The notes below the pieces were generated by a model. The model searched no databases, had not been told where the DNA came from, and saw only the letters and a program-made list of their open reading frames with translations. DNA of 64,000 nucleotides, from the sequence record OQ561750, one strand, 5' to 3'. The position numbers and the translations under genes are program-made. Position 1 is the first letter of the stretch. Every line of letters begins with the position of its first letter. This DNA comes from Escherichia phage LHE83. Positions 20,636 to 50,072 of the stretch are shown here, piece after piece.

Positions 20636-20821
20636 ATGAAACGTTGTGAATTAATTAGAAATGCTACTGCACTGGCCGCTGTTACTGCTTTTGGCTTTAG
20701 TATGTTTGCAGGATTCATGCTCGATATGCTTTCAACTTCCGAGAATATAATCTCTTTAGTAGTGGCATTCTTAATTGGTTCAATTTCTTTCGTTATGGAT
20801 AAAATCTCTAAAGGTGAATAA
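20636..20821 (+). CDS. Small membrane protein (61 aa)
   Basis: Internal ATG after SD GGAGAA; hydrophobic TM-like segments. Confidence 0.45.
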   Translation: MKRCELIRNATALAAVTAFGFSMFAGFMLDMLSTSENIISLVVAFLIGSISFVMDKISKGE

Positions 20822-23273: not shown

Positions 23274-23828
23274 ATGAAACTTTTAAAATATTTTAGTTGG
23301 GTTCTGTTGGTCCCACTAGATTTTATCTCTATGGTTCTGGCTGTTATCCTTGCACCATTTGTGGTTCCTTTCCACAATAAAAAGACAGGTAAATTACCGT
23401 ACGGCTTTGATTGGATGATGACATACGATAATCCAATTGACGGTGATAAAGGTCATATTAAACGTTGGGCTAACATCAGGAAAATGCCTGGTGGTGTTTA
23501 TCTCCAGAGGGTAGCTTGGCTATGGCGAAATAAAGCTTATAACTTTGCTTACCATAAACTTGGACGCGATTGTAGCTCAGAATTCCATTATCGTGGTAAT
23601 CCTGACGTTGAATCCGGTTCTCCTGATAAAGCTCATCATGGATGGTTATGGATGTGGAATGACGAAGCATGGGGAGTCTTTGCTTCAGTTCCGTATCTTA
23701 AAGTAGGTGGGATTACCTTTTACCTTCGTGTATACTGTGGTTGGAAACTTAAGAGTCTTTTGTCTCGTAAAATCCCTAAGGCTATGTTAGCCTTCCACAT
23801 AAACCCATTCCGGTTCTACAAGAACTGA
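23274..23828 (+). CDS. Membrane protein (184 aa), late-promoter driven, flanked by identical terminators
   Basis: N-terminal hydrophobic helix (WVLLVPLDFISMVLAVILAPFVVPF); Trp/His-rich body. Confidence 0.55.
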   Translation: MKLLKYFSWVLLVPLDFISMVLAVILAPFVVPFHNKKTGKLPYGFDWMMTYDNPIDGDKGHIKRWANIRKMPGGVYLQRVAWLWRNKAYNFAYHKLGRDCSSEFHYRGNPDVESGSPDKAHHGWLWMWNDEAWGVFASVPYLKVGGITFYLRVYCGWKLKSLLSRKIPKAMLAFHINPFRFYKN

Positions 23829-31440: not shown

Positions 31441-31929
31441 ATGGATATTTTTGATATGTTACGTCAAGACGAAGGTCTTGATTTAAATCTTTATAAAGAC
31501 ACTGAAGGTTATTGGACTATTGGTATTGGCCAGTTAGTTACCAAGAACCCATCTAAAGACGTTGCTCGCGCTGAACTTGATAAGCTTATGGGTCGAGTTT
31601 GCAACGGTCGTATTACTATGGCTGAAGCTGAGCAACTCTTTAACCGATCGGTTGAAAATGCTCGTAGAGCTATTCTGCGTAATCCTAAATTGAAACCTGT
31701 TTATGATGTATTAGACGAAGTTCGTCGTTGTGCTTTAATTAACATGGTCTTCCAAATGGGTGAAGCAGGTGTAGCAGGGTTCACTAACTCTTTACGTATG
31801 CTCCAACAGAAACGTTGGGACGATGCGGCAGTTAACCTGGCTCAATCCCGTTGGTATAAACAAACTCCAAATCGTGCTAAGCGCGTGATTTCAACATTTA
31901 AAACCGGCACATGGGCTGCTTATAGATAA
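31441..31929 (+). CDS. e: Endolysin (T4 lysozyme, gene e)
   Basis: 162 aa; [30 protein letters not shown] with catalytic Glu11/Asp20/Thr26 equivalents; high similarity to T4 lysozyme along full length. Confidence 0.9.
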
Positions 31930-32016: not shown

Positions 32017-32613
32017 ATGAAAACGTATAAAGAATTTATCGCCGAAGCTTCTGTAGGAAAGGTCCAAGGCATTAATAAAGATGAGTGGACTTACAAAGGA
32101 AACGGCGTTGACAACCCAGGAAACGGTTTTGACGCTAAAACAGCTCCTATTGAACGGTATTTAGCTACAAAGGCTTCTGATTTTAAAGCTTTCGCCTGGG
32201 AAGGACTTCGCTGGCGTAACGACCTAAATATTGAAGCTGATGGACTTAAATTTGCCCATATCCAAGATGTTGTTGCTAGTAACTTGGACGCAGCTTTTGT
32301 TAAAGCTGACGGTGACCTTCGTCGCTGGAATTTAAAACTGTTCTCTAAACAGAAAGGTCCTGTATTTGTACCTAAAGCAGGTAAATGGACTATTGATAAT
32401 AAATTGGCTAAGGCGGTCAACTTCGCCGGTCTTGAATTTGCCAAGCACAAATCAGCATGGAAAGGTCTCGATGCAATGACTTTCCGTAAAGAATTTGCCG
32501 ATGTTATGGCTAAAGGCGGCTTTAAGGCAGAAATAGATACCTCTAAAGGTACGTTTAAAGACGCTAATATTCAGTACGCTTACGCCGTTGCTAATGCTGC
32601 CCGTGGTAATTAA
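32017..32613 (+). CDS. ipIII: Internal protein III-like (CTS MKTYKEFIAEA)
   Basis: 198 aa (T4 IPIII 194 aa); CTS N-terminus; position e-ipIII-ipII-denV as in T4. Confidence 0.6.
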   Translation: MKTYKEFIAEASVGKVQGINKDEWTYKGNGVDNPGNGFDAKTAPIERYLATKASDFKAFAWEGLRWRNDLNIEADGLKFAHIQDVVASNLDAAFVKADGDLRRWNLKLFSKQKGPVFVPKAGKWTIDNKLAKAVNFAGLEFAKHKSAWKGLDAMTFRKEFADVMAKGGFKAEIDTSKGTFKDANIQYAYAVANAARGN

Positions 32614-32654: not shown

Positions 32655-32957
32655 ATGAAAACCTATCAAGAATTTATCACCGAAGCGCGAGTAAGTGCGG
32701 GTAAATTAGAAGCCGCCGTAAATAAAAAGGCCCATTCATTTCATGATTTGCCCGATAAAGACCGTAAGAAACTTGTAAGCCTTTATATTGACAAAGAGCG
32801 TATTCTCGCTCTCCCAGGCGCTAATGAAGGTAAACAGGCCAAGCCTTTGAATTCTGTCGAAAAGAAAATTGATAACTTTGCTTCTAAGTTCGGTATGTCT
32901 ATGGATGACCTTCAGCAAGCGGCTACCGAAGCAGCTAAAGCAATTAAAGGTAAATAA
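32655..32957 (+). CDS. ipII: Internal protein II-like (CTS MKTYQEFITEA)
   Basis: 100 aa (T4 IPII 100 aa); CTS N-terminus; synteny. Confidence 0.6.
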   Translation: MKTYQEFITEARVSAGKLEAAVNKKAHSFHDLPDKDRKKLVSLYIDKERILALPGANEGKQAKPLNSVEKKIDNFASKFGMSMDDLQQAATEAAKAIKGK

Positions 32958-33468: not shown

Positions 33469-33768
33469 ATGAAAACTTATCAAGAATTTATCACAGAAGC
33501 CAAAGCTCCTAAAGCATTTCAAATTGGAGTTCAAGGCAATTTAGACCAAGAATATGTTGATGCTATTGTAGCAAGCCTCGGTAAACAGGGCGTACAAGTC
33601 GATTTTGTTGATTTTACCAAAGGTAATACTTTTAATATTGTTACATCTAAAGGTTCTTTAGCTAAAGTTAAAAAGGCCTTTGGCGTAGCACAAGCATATG
33701 AAATCGACCACTCCGAATTAGAAAATAAAGGTCGCCAGAACACAATTAGAGGTTCTGGTTCTTTCTAA
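33469..33768 (+). CDS. Additional internal-protein-like gene (CTS MKTYQEFITEA)
   Basis: 99 aa; identical CTS-type N-terminus, unrelated body; downstream of denV. Confidence 0.55.
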   Translation: MKTYQEFITEAKAPKAFQIGVQGNLDQEYVDAIVASLGKQGVQVDFVDFTKGNTFNIVTSKGSLAKVKKAFGVAQAYEIDHSELENKGRQNTIRGSGSF

Positions 33769-34750: not shown

Positions 34751-34961
34751 ATTGTCAATTGAAGGCTCTGATGAAGCTCTGAAGATGTTTGTTGATTGGT
34801 TCCACGAACAGGGCGAACAAGGCTTTTTGGAATGTTGGAATGGTGGACAATGGAACGGTAAAGAAACCGTTTATCCGAGCACATATATCTCTGTTCGTGG
34901 CGGACCCAACGGCCTTCGTTTAGTGGAATACGATATCGCAACTGGTGAGGAAGTAAAATGA
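34743..34961 (+). CDS. Hypothetical protein (72 aa)
   Basis: Overlapping start; compact array. Confidence 0.4.
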   Translation: MSKLSIEGSDEALKMFVDWFHEQGEQGFLECWNGGQWNGKETVYPSTYISVRGGPNGLRLVEYDIATGEEVK

Positions 34962-35236
34962 TTGAAGATATCAAGGGTTACAAACCACATACCGACGATA
35001 AAATCGGTAAAGTGAATGCTATTAAAGATGCCGAAATTCGGTTAGGGCTGATGTTTAAAGCTCTAGAAGAAGAACATGTTACCTATTATATGAACTTAGA
35101 TACCGAAGAGGTTTCTGAACAAGAACTAGACCAGGCTCATGAACGCATTACCCAGATTCGTAATGCAATTGACCGTCTTAAAGAAGCTAGTATGTGGGCT
35201 TGTCGCTCTGTGTTCCAACCAGAAGAAAAGTACTAA
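34958..35236 (+). CDS. Small helical acidic protein (92 aa)
   Basis: ATGA overlap; predicted helical by composition. Confidence 0.4.
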   Translation: MIEDIKGYKPHTDDKIGKVNAIKDAEIRLGLMFKALEEEHVTYYMNLDTEEVSEQELDQAHERITQIRNAIDRLKEASMWACRSVFQPEEKY

Positions 35237-35240
35237 AGCA

Positions 35241-35269
35241 GTTTACATCTCCTGTAGGTATGATACTAT
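35241..35269 (+). promoter_or_regulatory. Early promoter (GTTTAC-N17-TACTAT) inside 10-bp inverted repeat TCTCCTGTAG/CTACAGGAGA
   Basis: Hexamers plus conserved ACCTATCAA box; 3-prime arm carries SD of regB. Confidence 0.55.
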
Positions 35270-35297: not shown

Positions 35298-35756
35298 ATG
35301 TCAGAAATTAATTCAGAAGTATTCATCCGCCGCAATAAATTACGTCGTCAGTTCGAAACCGAATTCCGCGAACTGAATGCGTCCATCAAAAAAGCCGCCA
35401 TTAAGAGCGGAGTCCCAGCCTTCTTTATTAAGTACTCTAATCACTTGTTGGACCGTGCTATCCAACGTGAAATCGACGAAAAATACGTTTTTGCTTTATT
35501 CAAGCAACTCCATAACCATGTTAAAGAAATTCATGAATTTTTAATCCAGGAACCTCTGCCTGATGTAGAAGCCGAAATCATTCCTGGTAAAGTGTATCGC
35601 CCATTGCGTCTCGAAATTACCGATAAAACCTTATGGCTAGGTATGACTGTAGATCGTAAACATCCTGATAAAGGATACTCGTTAAAATGTCGTATGGCAT
35701 TTGTTAACTCTAAACGTTTAGAAGGTAAAACCAGCACGAAAGTAATCTATCTTTAA
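35298..35756 (+). CDS. regB: Sequence-specific endoribonuclease RegB
   Basis: 152 aa; EVFIRRNKLRR...HLLDRAIQREIDE...RLEITD...CRMA segments align with T4 RegB. Confidence 0.8.
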   Translation: MSEINSEVFIRRNKLRRQFETEFRELNASIKKAAIKSGVPAFFIKYSNHLLDRAIQREIDEKYVFALFKQLHNHVKEIHEFLIQEPLPDVEAEIIPGKVYRPLRLEITDKTLWLGMTVDRKHPDKGYSLKCRMAFVNSKRLEGKTSTKVIYL

Positions 35757-35768
35757 TAATGAGGTCTC

Positions 35769-36308
35769 ATGAAAAAAGTATTAGCCACTTTACTATTGAC
35801 AGTTAGTATGTCTGCCCATAGCGTAGAGCCTACTTTCAGTAATGAACAACTCGATAATTTACATTATGCGTATGCTTTCGGTGAACAATACCAAAAGTCG
35901 GGAAAGTTCAAAGAAACCCCTAATCAAAAAGGATTAGGATATATCATGGCCGGATTACTATGGCAGGAATCATCCGCCGGAATTAATCAAGGTTTAAATA
36001 AAGATAAGCACCATGCTTATGGCATGTTCCAAAATTACTTGCCTACGTTAAGAAGTCGTGTTCAACAGGTAGGTTGGAAGATGTCTGACAAAGAAATAAT
36101 TCGTATGGTCCAAAAACGACAGAACAGTGCCTCTTGGGCCTACATTGAACTGTCTTATTGGATTGATGTTCACAAAGGTGACCTGAGAAAAGCGATTGCT
36201 TCTTATAATGCGGGCTGGAACGCCAAAGCAGGCAGTAAATATGCTTCTGAAGTTCTAGAAAAGGCCAATTACCTAAAATCTAAAAAGATGTTTGAGGCGG
36301 TGTATTAA
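35769..36308 (+). CDS. Secreted lytic-transglycosylase-like protein (SLT-like motifs)
   Basis: Signal peptide MKKVLATLLLTVSMSAHS; motifs WQESSAG, GMFQ, SYNAGW resembling SLT family 1. Confidence 0.5.
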   Translation: MKKVLATLLLTVSMSAHSVEPTFSNEQLDNLHYAYAFGEQYQKSGKFKETPNQKGLGYIMAGLLWQESSAGINQGLNKDKHHAYGMFQNYLPTLRSRVQQVGWKMSDKEIIRMVQKRQNSASWAYIELSYWIDVHKGDLRKAIASYNAGWNAKAGSKYASEVLEKANYLKSKKMFEAVY

Positions 36309-36665
36309 ATGATTAAGCAGATGACTATAGCGCTTATGTTGATTGCTCCGGGAGTATTAGCGTCACAAGTTGATGATAGTAATAATTCAATTGTCGAGTA
36401 TGCTACCCGTACAGCAAAAGATTATTGTCATCCGAGTAATACTGAATGCATTATCGAATTCAGTTCAAAAATCACAGCTGCTTTTAAAGATGGCCAGAAC
36501 GACGTAGAGCATCGCCGAATGAAAGAGAAAACTCTTTCTAAAAGATACGAGCAACGTCTAAACGTTACTGAATGTATTCCATCTGATAAAAAGTACAAAG
36601 AAATGTGCGCGTCTATGGTAGACAGACTCGTTGATTCATACAACCGAGGATTAAACTCTAAATGA
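36309..36665 (+). CDS. Secreted small protein with signal peptide (118 aa)
   Basis: N-terminus MIKQMTIALMLIAPGVLASQ; TAAATG junction. Confidence 0.45.
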   Translation: MIKQMTIALMLIAPGVLASQVDDSNNSIVEYATRTAKDYCHPSNTECIIEFSSKITAAFKDGQNDVEHRRMKEKTLSKRYEQRLNVTECIPSDKKYKEMCASMVDRLVDSYNRGLNSK

Positions 36666-37129
36666 TTATTGATTATATTAAGGGCGATATCGTCGCCCTG
36701 TTTCTTCAAGGTAATAATGTTGCACACGGGTGCAACTGTTTCCACACAATGGGTTCAGGTGTAGCTGGGCAATTGGCTAAGGCTTATCCGCCTATTCTCG
36801 CTATCGATAAAACTACTTATTTAGGCAATTTGGCAAAACTTGGCACGTTTACTCAAGCTACAGGTAATAATGGCCAAATTTGCTATAATTTATATACCCA
36901 ATACGAACCAGGCCCTAATCTTGATTATGGTGCTTTAGTAAACTGTATGATAGAATTAAACCGTACCGCAAAAGGTCTTTTGTTTAAACCAAGAATTTAT
37001 ATTCCTCGCATTGGTTGTGGTATTGCTGGTGGTGATTGGGACAAGGTTTACCAATTGATTAATTTGTTTACTCCTGATATTAATTTAGTGGTGGTAGATT
37101 ATGAAAGCCCATTACCCGCATCCGTTTGA
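36662..37129 (+). CDS. Macro-domain protein (ADP-ribose binding/processing fold)
   Basis: 155 aa; GDI...NVAHGCNCFHTMGSGVAGQLAKAYP and PRIGCGIAGGDW parallel the GDIT...NAAN...GGGVDGAIHRAAGP and AFPAISTGVYGYP macro motifs (e.g. E. coli YmdB). Confidence 0.55.
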   Translation: MIIDYIKGDIVALFLQGNNVAHGCNCFHTMGSGVAGQLAKAYPPILAIDKTTYLGNLAKLGTFTQATGNNGQICYNLYTQYEPGPNLDYGALVNCMIELNRTAKGLLFKPRIYIPRIGCGIAGGDWDKVYQLINLFTPDINLVVVDYESPLPASV

Positions 37130-38072: not shown

Positions 38073-38351
38073 ATGGACCTAAATTCAAAGATTTTAATTC
38101 TAGCGTTCGCTGTGGCTATTTCTTATATTGTTCTTTCGCCTATCATGGATGATGTGGCTTACAAAAGAGAGATAGAGGTTGTAGCAGCGACGTATAATGC
38201 TAATAATAAAGAGTGTCCTAATAAAAATGGGATGGATTTAATTAAAGCGCATTATATGCTTTCCATTACCTCGCCTATACAGAGGAATTGGGTTGAATAT
38301 AATTTTAACGACGTGTTCTATTCTTATTGTCGTAAGCTTAAAAAGCTATAA
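38073..38351 (+). CDS. Small membrane protein (92 aa)
   Basis: N-terminal TM helix ILILAFAVAISYIVLSPI. Confidence 0.45.
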   Translation: MDLNSKILILAFAVAISYIVLSPIMDDVAYKREIEVVAATYNANNKECPNKNGMDLIKAHYMLSITSPIQRNWVEYNFNDVFYSYCRKLKKL

Positions 38352-38443: not shown

Positions 38444-38737
38444 ATGGATATTTTCCGTACAGCGGCTTGTATCCTTATGGCGGGATGTTTAAGCCCTACA
38501 GTTTCACTAGCAAATGACACCAACGATAAATTGATGGATGCATTTGCTAGTAGTGCGATGCCTGTTTATGCGCAAATGAGTAGACCTAGCATAAAGGCCT
38601 CCGAAGACTATTGGGCCTACCTTAATGCTTCTTGGAAGGTATCAAGTTGTCAGACTATAGAAGCGTGCTCAATTGAAGGTCGTGCCATCGGAGAGCGTTA
38701 TGCAAAACTAATGAAGGTGGAAGATGAAGTTCAATGA
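38444..38737 (+). CDS. Putative lipoprotein (97 aa)
   Basis: Signal peptide with lipobox-like LMAGC. Confidence 0.45.
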   Translation: MDIFRTAACILMAGCLSPTVSLANDTNDKLMDAFASSAMPVYAQMSRPSIKASEDYWAYLNASWKVSSCQTIEACSIEGRAIGERYAKLMKVEDEVQ

Positions 38738-49774: not shown

Positions 49775-50072
49775 AATTGAGATTTACGGTATCCCTGAGA
49801 CAGTCATGCGCTGTCCAGGGTGCATTGCTGTTCTATCGCTCCTAAATTCCCTTTCTATCCCACATACTTTCTATCCTGTGATTAATCAGACGCCGTCAGG
49901 CGCAGTATATGACAAGCCTCTTATAGTATCATTGGCCAAACGTGCAGGCTTCAAGAGCTTAGCGATACGCTATCCTGTCATATTTGTCGATAATAAGAAA
50001 ATAGAAAATATTCCTGCCTTCAAATCGCTTTTGATTGAACTTGGTTATGACCGAGATTTAATTGAAGATTAG
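49755..50072 (+). CDS. Glutaredoxin/NrdH-like redoxin (CPGC motif)
   Basis: IEIYGIPETVMRCPGC thioredoxin-fold start. Confidence 0.45.
   Translation: MDQKLTKIEIYGIPETVMRCPGCIAVLSLLNSLSIPHTFYPVINQTPSGAVYDKPLIVSLAKRAGFKSLAIRYPVIFVDNKKIENIPAFKSLLIELGYDRDLIED

Follow-up and report, generated by a model that had tools for sequence, protein, structure and literature searches.

The window, a 64,000-nt stretch of Escherichia phage LHE83 (OQ561750), contains an early-gene block of a T4-like phage in its 31.4-39.1 kb region. Two open reading frames (ORFs) were found in this block at exactly 35769-36308 (179 aa) and 36309-36665 (118 aa), downstream of regB at 35298-35756, in agreement with a sequence-only reading of this DNA that had described two adjacent genes following regB. 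The genes considered are listed below.

31441-31929: endolysin gene e (lysozyme), about 4 kb upstream of the pair
35298..35756 (+): regB endoribonuclease, directly upstream of vs.1 (Pfam REGB_T4, E = 8e-69; start codon checked)
35769..36308 (+): vs.1 orthologue, 179 aa; encodes, in precursor form, a putative periplasmic lytic transglycosylase of the SLT type
36309..36665 (+): vs orthologue, annotated as valyl-tRNA synthetase modifier; small four-helix, four-cysteine protein with predicted export, 118 aa
36662-37129: tk.4, macro domain
38444..38737 (+): rI, an antiholin gene of lysis inhibition lying outside the pair (Pfam Antiholin PF24205, E = 2.3e-23)

The two ORFs are orthologues of T4 vs.1 and vs

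The upstream ORF was assigned to the T4 vs.1 family (phrog_600, E = 3e-67) and the downstream ORF to the 'valyl tRNA synthetase modifier' family (phrog_1256, E = 3e-34). Neither Vs.1 nor Vs nor RI matched any NCBIfam family. With a 2-kb query spanning the pair, DNA identity was 98.7% to Escherichia phage WG01, 97.5% to Bp7 (genus Dhakavirus) and 94.8% to JS10, and both vs.1 and vs are annotated in WG01 and Bp7. The neighbouring ORFs match the T4 map (e, internal virion protein, denV, vs.8, vs.7, vs.4, regB, tk.4, tk and rI), and the order in annotated Bp7 and T4 is regB - vs.1 - vs - tk.4 - tk.3 - tk.2 - (tk.1) - tk - rI.1 position - rI - rI.-1. Judged from these sequence comparisons, the source is a T4-like phage of the Dhakavirus type, whose vs.1 and vs genes the two ORFs represent with virtual certainty.

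Vs.1 is 67% identical to T4 Vs.1 (P13311, Y06E_BPT4) and Vs about 46% identical to T4 Vs (P13310, VS_BPT4; 47% in the alignment, 45.8% by tblastn), each with equal length and both within the same regB-vs.1-vs-tk.4 order. The spacing between regB and vs.1 is 12 nt, and a GAGG Shine-Dalgarno sequence precedes vs.1 and vs alike. The two genes share one frame with the TAA stop alone between them, the ATG of vs following directly after the TAA, whereas the T4 genes overlap by 8 nt; there is no essential difference between the two gene pairs. Both genes are real, as relatives of Vs.1 occur in about 2,000 phage records and both T4 proteins have been seen by mass spectrometry (MS).

The ORF at 38444-38737, which had been read as a putative lipoprotein lying near the pair, is instead the RI antiholin (PF24205, 82.3 bits against a cut-off of 27; PHROG 1246 'lysis inhibition'). 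Its residues 11-15 (LMAGC) resemble a lipobox with Met at -3, inside the hydrophobic segment, and an ordinary cleavage site, SLA before N, then follows. Since T4 RI and the majority of its homologues lack Cys15 and PF24205 is matched, the lipoprotein reading was dropped.

Vs.1 carries conserved SLT motifs and a predicted lytic transglycosylase fold

The sequence-only reading had named E-S, GMFQ and (A/S)YNAGW motifs of soluble lytic transglycosylases in the first gene. All of them are present and conserved in the family, as determined in an alignment of 36 Vs.1 sequences: W65-Q-E67-S-S69 (nt 35961-35975), G85-M-F-Q88-N89 (nt 36021-36035) and S145-Y146-N147-A-G149-W (nt 36201-36218). Residues E67, S69, G85, Q88, N89, Y146, N147 and G149 are invariant in all 36 sequences, and the remaining motif residues are invariant or nearly so. 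In a profile alignment, Glu67 matches the catalytic Glu of goose-type (g-type) lysozyme.

35967..35969 (+): codon of the predicted catalytic Glu67 (E-S motif in WQESSAG), invariant in 36 sequences

Profile evidence for the SLT assignment is divided between this protein and its family. Against Pfam SLT (PF01464), Vs.1 of this phage scored 16.2 bits (E = 0.0078), below the gathering threshold of 21.3 bits, but 35 of the 36 family members matched at E < 0.1 (best 1.3e-7), and about 25 Vs.1 relatives carry a precomputed PF01464 match. Matches of the Vs.1 profile to PDB sequences were limited to weak hits on g-type lysozymes (E = 0.23), so a fold search was needed. The AF2 model built from the family alignment (pLDDT 86.9; residues 1-20 at low confidence) has the lysozyme-like alpha-helical fold of SLT / family 1 enzymes, and its best Foldseek matches were all lytic transglycosylases (MltD, Slt, Slt70, T7 gp16 and phiKZ gp144) or goose-type lysozymes. 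As a whole, the evidence favours an SLT-type enzyme. When the export features described below are added, it is very likely that Vs.1 is exported and has the fold of a lytic transglycosylase.

The predicted chemistry follows from residues that are missing. In the profile alignment, Vs.1 lacks the 'VD' segment that follows GLMQ in g-type lysozyme and carries one of the extra catalytic Asp residues there. The loop after E67 contains no conserved acidic residue, and the Vs.1 family conserves no acidic counterpart of either the second or the third Asp in the active site of g-type lysozymes. The absence of water-positioning acidic residues favours lytic transglycosylase chemistry over that of a hydrolase, and Vs.1 is therefore most likely, as far as residue conservation can tell, a lytic transglycosylase that forms 1,6-anhydroMurNAc. 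Compared with family 1 lytic transglycosylases (the catalytic domain of Slt70, MltC/D/E/F) and goose-type lysozymes, Vs.1 is similar in fold with marginal sequence similarity. It differs from these enzymes in being a stand-alone domain of about 160 aa without superhelical, LysM or lipid-anchor modules, and in that its chemistry is predicted.

Both products have signal-peptide-like N-termini

Export was assessed with our own uncalibrated heuristic, which looks for a positive n-region, an h-region of 7-15 residues and a small-x-small site, in 36 Vs.1 and 27 Vs homologues and in the 53 loci described in the next section. By this n/h/c-region analysis, the N-terminus of Vs.1 is MKKVLATLLLTVSMSAHS followed by VEP, and that of Vs is MIKQMTIALMLIAPGVLA followed by SQ.

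35769..35822 (+): Vs.1 residues 1-18, a putative Sec signal peptide cut between AHS and VE (heuristic)
36309..36365 (+): Vs residues 1-18/19, a putative signal peptide cut between VLA and S or between LAS and Q (heuristic)

Both N-termini show a positive n-region, a hydrophobic core of 9-12 residues and a small-x-small site. Sequence conservation is lowest in this N-terminal segment, but its hydrophobic character, its position after Lys/Arg and the small-x-small site that follows are kept in 36/36 Vs.1 and 27/27 Vs homologues. Used as a crude screen, the heuristic passed 6 of 106 approximate ORFs of the window, two of which are the adjacent vs.1-vs pair. Residues 1-21 of the Vs AF2 model have a pLDDT below 50. 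In the GenBank record of Acinetobacter phage Lazarus (MN782535), a 'putative periplasmic secretion signal' is noted on Vs.1 and on its neighbour.

The heuristic features and their retention in homologues bear out the earlier claim of N-terminal signal peptides on both genes, and there is strong inference from these sequence features that both products are exported. For Vs considered separately, export is predicted with good, though not full, confidence. The description of the second gene as encoding a secreted small protein is thus supported by its signal-like N-terminus, but it had missed the annotation of vs as a valyl-tRNA synthetase modifier.

A Vs-family gene follows T4-type vs.1 in all loci sampled

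The neighbourhood of vs.1 was analysed in 62 IMG/VR loci encoding Vs.1 relatives and in the Lazarus locus from GenBank. Among them, 53 have a T4-type Vs.1 (42-99% identity, Acinetobacter phages included). In 53/53 of these T4-type loci, the next ORF after vs.1 belongs to the Vs family, starting -8 to +7 nt from the vs.1 stop. The Vs profile matched directly in 52/53 (E from 1e-63 to 1e-3), with one locus (L050) reaching only E = 0.16; all 53 matched after iteration, where the scores are partly circular because matches had been added to the model. More distant Vs.1 homologues, from Vi01-like, Felix O1-like and some Aeromonas phages, have no Vs neighbour, indicating that Vs.1 can work without Vs.

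Full-length Vs copies are about 99-122 aa long, with a hydrophobic N-terminus, exactly four cysteines beyond the signal segment and Y-x-x-G-L in the C-terminal tail; the copies in two loci (L008 and L039) are truncated or split. Some variants have a canonical lipobox (ALSGC) in place of the signal peptide, MKKLFVLLVVVALSGC. The invariant cysteines are C40, C47, C89 and C100. The AF2 model of Vs (pLDDT 78.7) is a four-helix bundle in which the cysteine pairs flank the H1-H2 and H3-H4 turns. The four cysteines probably form two disulfides; as the two turns lie at the same end of the modelled bundle, they could bind a metal instead.

The Vs family is confined to phages and is tiny. A profile search among 1.84 billion protein representatives retrieved 8 representatives and no cellular relative, while tblastn matched Vs in 795 phage records; a precomputed PF26829 match is present on Vs relatives. 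Complementarity of charge between Vs.1 (pI about 9.6) and Vs (4.2-9.0) was also considered; it is inconsistent across clades and was dropped. N-terminally His-tagged T4 Vs made in the cytoplasm has been found in inclusion bodies, as is expected when an exported protein that depends on disulfides has its signal peptide blocked.

Expression and fitness data from T4

The pair had been called early-expressed, and this agrees with the T4 orthologues, which are early transcripts: in time-resolved omics, T4 vs.1 and vs were classed as 'early-RNA, middle-protein', and both proteins were quantified by MS (PMC9697503). In the window, a candidate early promoter was located upstream of regB.

35242..35269 (+): sigma-70-like promoter match (TTTACA-16-TACTAT with TG), upstream of regB; candidate early promoter, inferred

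The match is weak, agreeing with the consensus at 9/12 positions, and such matches are no commoner in this region than in shuffled sequence. A sequence scan showed no terminator-like sites separating regB, vs.1 and vs, and regB is probably, on these sequence features, the first gene of a transcription unit shared with vs.1 and vs.

In the HIDEN-SEQ transposon preprint, T4 vs.1 and vs were non-essential on LB (10.1101/2025.11.20.689424). Insertion counts in the LB control were 26.6 for vs and 22.6 for vs.1, about 10-fold under those of non-essential neighbours (regB 179, tk.4 290, vs.3 652), whereas the e, t and spanin genes tolerated almost no insertions (mean counts 0-2.5 in LB) (10.1101/2025.11.20.689424). 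When LB was compared with M9Glc, vs was the most depleted T4 gene (log2FC -2.19, padj 0), vs.1 gave a log2FC of -0.87 (p = 0.0055, padj 0.155), and a clean vs knockout showed a plaque defect on M9Glc (10.1101/2025.11.20.689424). The shared low counts of vs.1 and vs are compatible with a common pathway and equally with polarity of vs.1 insertions on vs, and are thus no proof that the pathway is shared. The minimal-medium effect of vs fits a role in translation or nutrition, too.

Discussion

Both genes and the SLT prediction were already known, and the finding is a re-discovery of catalogued T4-family genes. The link of vs.1 to SLT has been published (Nolan et al.; 2006 SLT remark), UniRef names Vs.1 relatives 'Transglycosylase SLT domain-containing protein', and the Lazarus record reads 'Vs.1; putative lytic murein transglycosylase, putative periplasmic secretion signal' (MN782535). 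No functional study of vs.1 was found in the literature searched, which yielded the 2006 SLT remark, an expression study and a transposon preprint only. The sequence-only reading had regarded a secreted peptidoglycan enzyme at this place, outside the lysis cassette, as unusual. That view does not hold, since vs.1 and vs are conserved T4 genes present in hundreds to thousands of phage genomes. About 2,010 phage records contain a Vs.1 relative, Ackermannviridae and Felix O1-like phages among them. The contrast with a lysis cassette also falls away, because T4-like phages have none; here the distance from the pair is about 4 kb to e on the upstream side and about 2 kb to rI on the downstream side. 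T4-type phages thus regularly encode a secreted SLT-like enzyme at a distance from their lysozyme genes.

The reading that we moderately favour is that vs.1 and vs encode an exported lytic transglycosylase and a dedicated exported periplasmic partner, both early and dispensable on rich medium. Vs.1 would be made with a cleavable Sec signal peptide, exported and processed to a soluble, basic protein (pI about 9.6) of about 160 aa with an SLT/goose-lysozyme fold in the periplasm, where its single catalytic Glu, E67, would cut the MurNAc-GlcNAc bond of peptidoglycan. Translation of vs is probably coupled to that of vs.1, given that its start lies directly after the vs.1 stop; the four-helix product of about 100 aa would be translated from the same message, exported by means of a signal peptide in this phage or of a lipoprotein signal in certain clades, and become a compact helical protein on oxidation. 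In the periplasm, and not in the cytoplasm, Vs would bind, restrain or direct Vs.1 as a regulator, inhibitor or targeting factor. For the phage, the probable gain is a local remodelling of the cell wall that would be important in slowly growing hosts; the T4 genes, dispensable on rich medium, raise fitness, most clearly vs on minimal medium.

The pair can be compared with known periplasmic enzyme-inhibitor pairs, namely T6SS Tse3-Tsi3, PliG/Ivy with lysozymes and T4 Spackle with the gp5 lysozyme; inhibition is one of several possible roles of Vs. The predicted Vs fold resembles none of the peptidoglycan-enzyme inhibitors Tsi3, PliG/Ivy and Spackle. Specialised lytic transglycosylases of secretion systems (EtgA, IagB/IpgF, VirB1 and P19) offer another comparison, from which the pair differs in that Vs has no relationship to rod or needle proteins; T4 is not known to assemble a trans-envelope machine at this stage of infection. 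The nearest analogies to Vs.1-Vs are EtgA-EscI, Tse3-Tsi3 and lysozyme-PliG, in architecture only.

The place of action of Vs is contested. Vs, or part of its precursor, may instead be cytoplasmic and bind the host valyl-tRNA synthetase (ValRS), with its position next to vs.1 reflecting synteny without functional coupling. In classical T4 work, the vs product reportedly binds the cytoplasmic valyl-tRNA synthetase, and vs mutations are said to alter phage growth on valS(ts) hosts in vivo, an effect that is hard to square with a purely periplasmic Vs. [quoted passage not shown] However, every member of the Vs family has a signal-peptide-like N-terminus, several have a textbook lipobox and four cysteines are invariant. 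The coupling of Vs to a predicted exported enzyme in 53/53 loci extends to Acinetobacter phages, whose hosts have a divergent ValRS, and cytoplasmic expression of T4 Vs led to inclusion bodies. In the literature reached, no basis was found for assigning this ORF to the genetically defined vs locus. The signal peptide, the lipobox variants, the four cysteines and the coupling to an exported enzyme, sequence features as they are, argue against a cytoplasmic Vs, and we consider that location unlikely, though well worth keeping in view. Signal-like N-termini, the invariable pairing, the lipobox, the cysteines and fold, the phage-only family and the insolubility together make an exported Vs acting with Vs.1 the most economical reading. 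That Vs partners Vs.1 in the periplasm is nevertheless a proposal to which we give slightly less than an even chance. The stronger statement that the 'valyl-tRNA synthetase modifier' family as a whole consists of exported, disulfide-stabilised proteins (lipoproteins in some clades) serving as obligate periplasmic partners of Vs.1 is put forward tentatively, with more doubt than belief.

Other roles can be considered for Vs.1 itself. It might be an accessory or back-up muralytic enzyme that aids T4 lysozyme E and the spanins late in infection, and not an early remodelling factor. Distant Vs.1 homologues lie directly upstream of the i-spanin and o-spanin genes in two T4-type contigs (L059 and L060), one of them of the Cronobacter phage S13 type; the Vs.1 fold is common to phage endolysins and virion transglycosylases, and rI and e are within a few kb of vs.1. 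The T4 data speak against such a late role, which we judge improbable. The RNA of vs.1 is early and the protein appears in the middle period; vs.1 is non-essential while e, t and the spanin genes are near insertion-free, so that Vs.1 cannot replace E and is unlikely to suffice for lysis. Periplasmic Vs.1 would moreover be present from mid-infection without lysis of the cell, which implies that its activity must be weak, local or restrained. The pair might also act in superinfection exclusion, which the sequence-only reading had proposed alongside envelope remodelling, or in lysis-inhibition signalling, sensing superinfecting phage in the periplasm. In favour of such a role are the early synthesis and predicted periplasmic location of both products and the gene order of phage Lazarus, in which an uninterrupted series comprises vs.1, a vs-like gene, another two secreted ORFs and rI. 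In T4, exclusion and resistance to lysis from without depend on Imm and Sp, and lysis inhibition on RI, RIII and T. These functions being accounted for already, the HIDEN-SEQ phenotype concerning growth medium and not superinfection, and no direct support having been found beyond location, such a role seems very improbable. Finally, Vs.1 could be a catalytically inactive peptidoglycan-binding protein that keeps the lysozyme fold only, as the sub-threshold Pfam SLT score and the lack of reported activity in the literature searched would allow. The catalytic Glu and the signature motifs are, however, invariant down to about 43% identity and persist at 25-30% identity, which leaves this idea with hardly any credibility.

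By itself, the re-discovery of vs.1 and vs adds little. Vs.1 is among the most widely conserved accessory proteins of T4-type phages and is predicted to be a periplasmic peptidoglycan enzyme long before lysis, raising the questions of how the cell survives with Vs.1 in its periplasm before lysis and what the phage gains. If the Vs family is indeed an exported partner of Vs.1, either the classical vs function was credited, within the rI-e interval, to an ORF that does not have it, or the association with ValRS is secondary, and the minimal-medium defect of T4 vs mutants would reflect a function in the cell envelope and not in translation. The name of vs, over 50 years old, refers to an activity in the cytoplasm, and vs has now been identified as the strongest minimal-medium fitness gene of T4. 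Solving this conflict would either correct a widespread annotation or reveal the route by which a protein with a signal peptide reaches a cytoplasmic synthetase.

Lysis genes near Vs.1 homologues and in the window

Distant homologues of Vs.1, the predicted exported SLT-type transglycosylase, were found near spanin genes on two IMG/VR contigs:

L059:2806-4147, distant Vs.1 homologue and spanin neighbourhood
L060:2920-4218, distant Vs.1 homologue and spanin neighbourhood

These homologues were 31-33% identical, and on both contigs the genes for an i-spanin (phrog_739) and an o-spanin (phrog_812) came immediately after the homologue, with pseT next in line. The L059 contig was 99.5% identical to Cronobacter phage S13. 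Such a lysis-gene neighbourhood distinguishes L059 and L060 from T4 and the window, both of which lack it.

The antiholin RI and the gene preceding it were located in the window as follows:

38073-38351, 92-aa ORF at the rI.1 position between tk and rI (phrog_6298, function unknown)
38444-38737, RI antiholin ORF, with a signal segment containing the lipobox-like LMAGC

Close relatives of this RI carry MIGC in place of LMAGC, and RI of Acinetobacter phage Lazarus carries LVGC, whereas T4 RI has no lipobox-like motif. Some RI proteins might carry a lipid anchor. The 92-aa protein has a hydrophobic N-terminal segment and two cysteines; the iterated Vs profile matched it very weakly, with E about 1e-2, which is probably noise.

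Genes and a hairpin around the vs.1-vs pair

The following features flank the pair and its upstream gene regB:

34958-35236, T4 vs.4 orthologue, on the basis of the Bp7 annotation
36662-37129, macro-domain ORF (Pfam Macro, E = 7e-8), T4 tk.4 orthologue
36681-36699, GC-rich hairpin AGGGCGATATCGTCGCCCT, followed by GTTTCTT, within the tk.4 coding sequence

T4 Vs.4 is Acb2, the anti-CBASS cyclic-nucleotide sponge. The hairpin lies 16 nt downstream of the vs stop codon and is kept in T4, where a T-run stands behind it. It may act as a leaky terminator or RNA-stability element at the end of the regB-vs.1-vs unit, or it may merely reflect the conserved KGDIVAL peptide. The tk.4 product was named AdfM, an anti-DarTG2 factor, in a 2025 preprint.

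Further upstream, three ORFs begin with the common N-terminus MKTY(Q/K)EFI(T/A)EA:

32017-32613, internal virion protein (phrog_5341)
32655-32957, ORF with the common N-terminus
33469-33768, ORF with the common N-terminus

This leader looks like a capsid-targeting sequence. Separately, a crude screen of the whole window picked up signal- or anchor-like N-termini in three other ORFs as well, 20636-20821, 23274-23828 and 49806-50072.

Variation and decay of vs

Variant vs genes were found in the following IMG/VR loci encoding Vs.1 relatives:

L033:3549-3875, L034:2495-2821, L037:3549-3875 and L054:3549-3875, Vs-family ORFs with a lipoprotein signal
L039:3549-3876, vs of the same clade, split into two ORFs
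L008:3541-3798, shortened vs (85 aa) in a Dhakavirus-like genome

In the clade comprising the first five loci, the N-terminus is a canonical lipoprotein signal, MKKLFVLLVVVALSGC, which stands in place of the signal peptidase I site. The shortened L008 product has lost two of the four family cysteines. Since vs is shortened in L008 and split in L039, a different phage, vs can decay while vs.1 remains intact.
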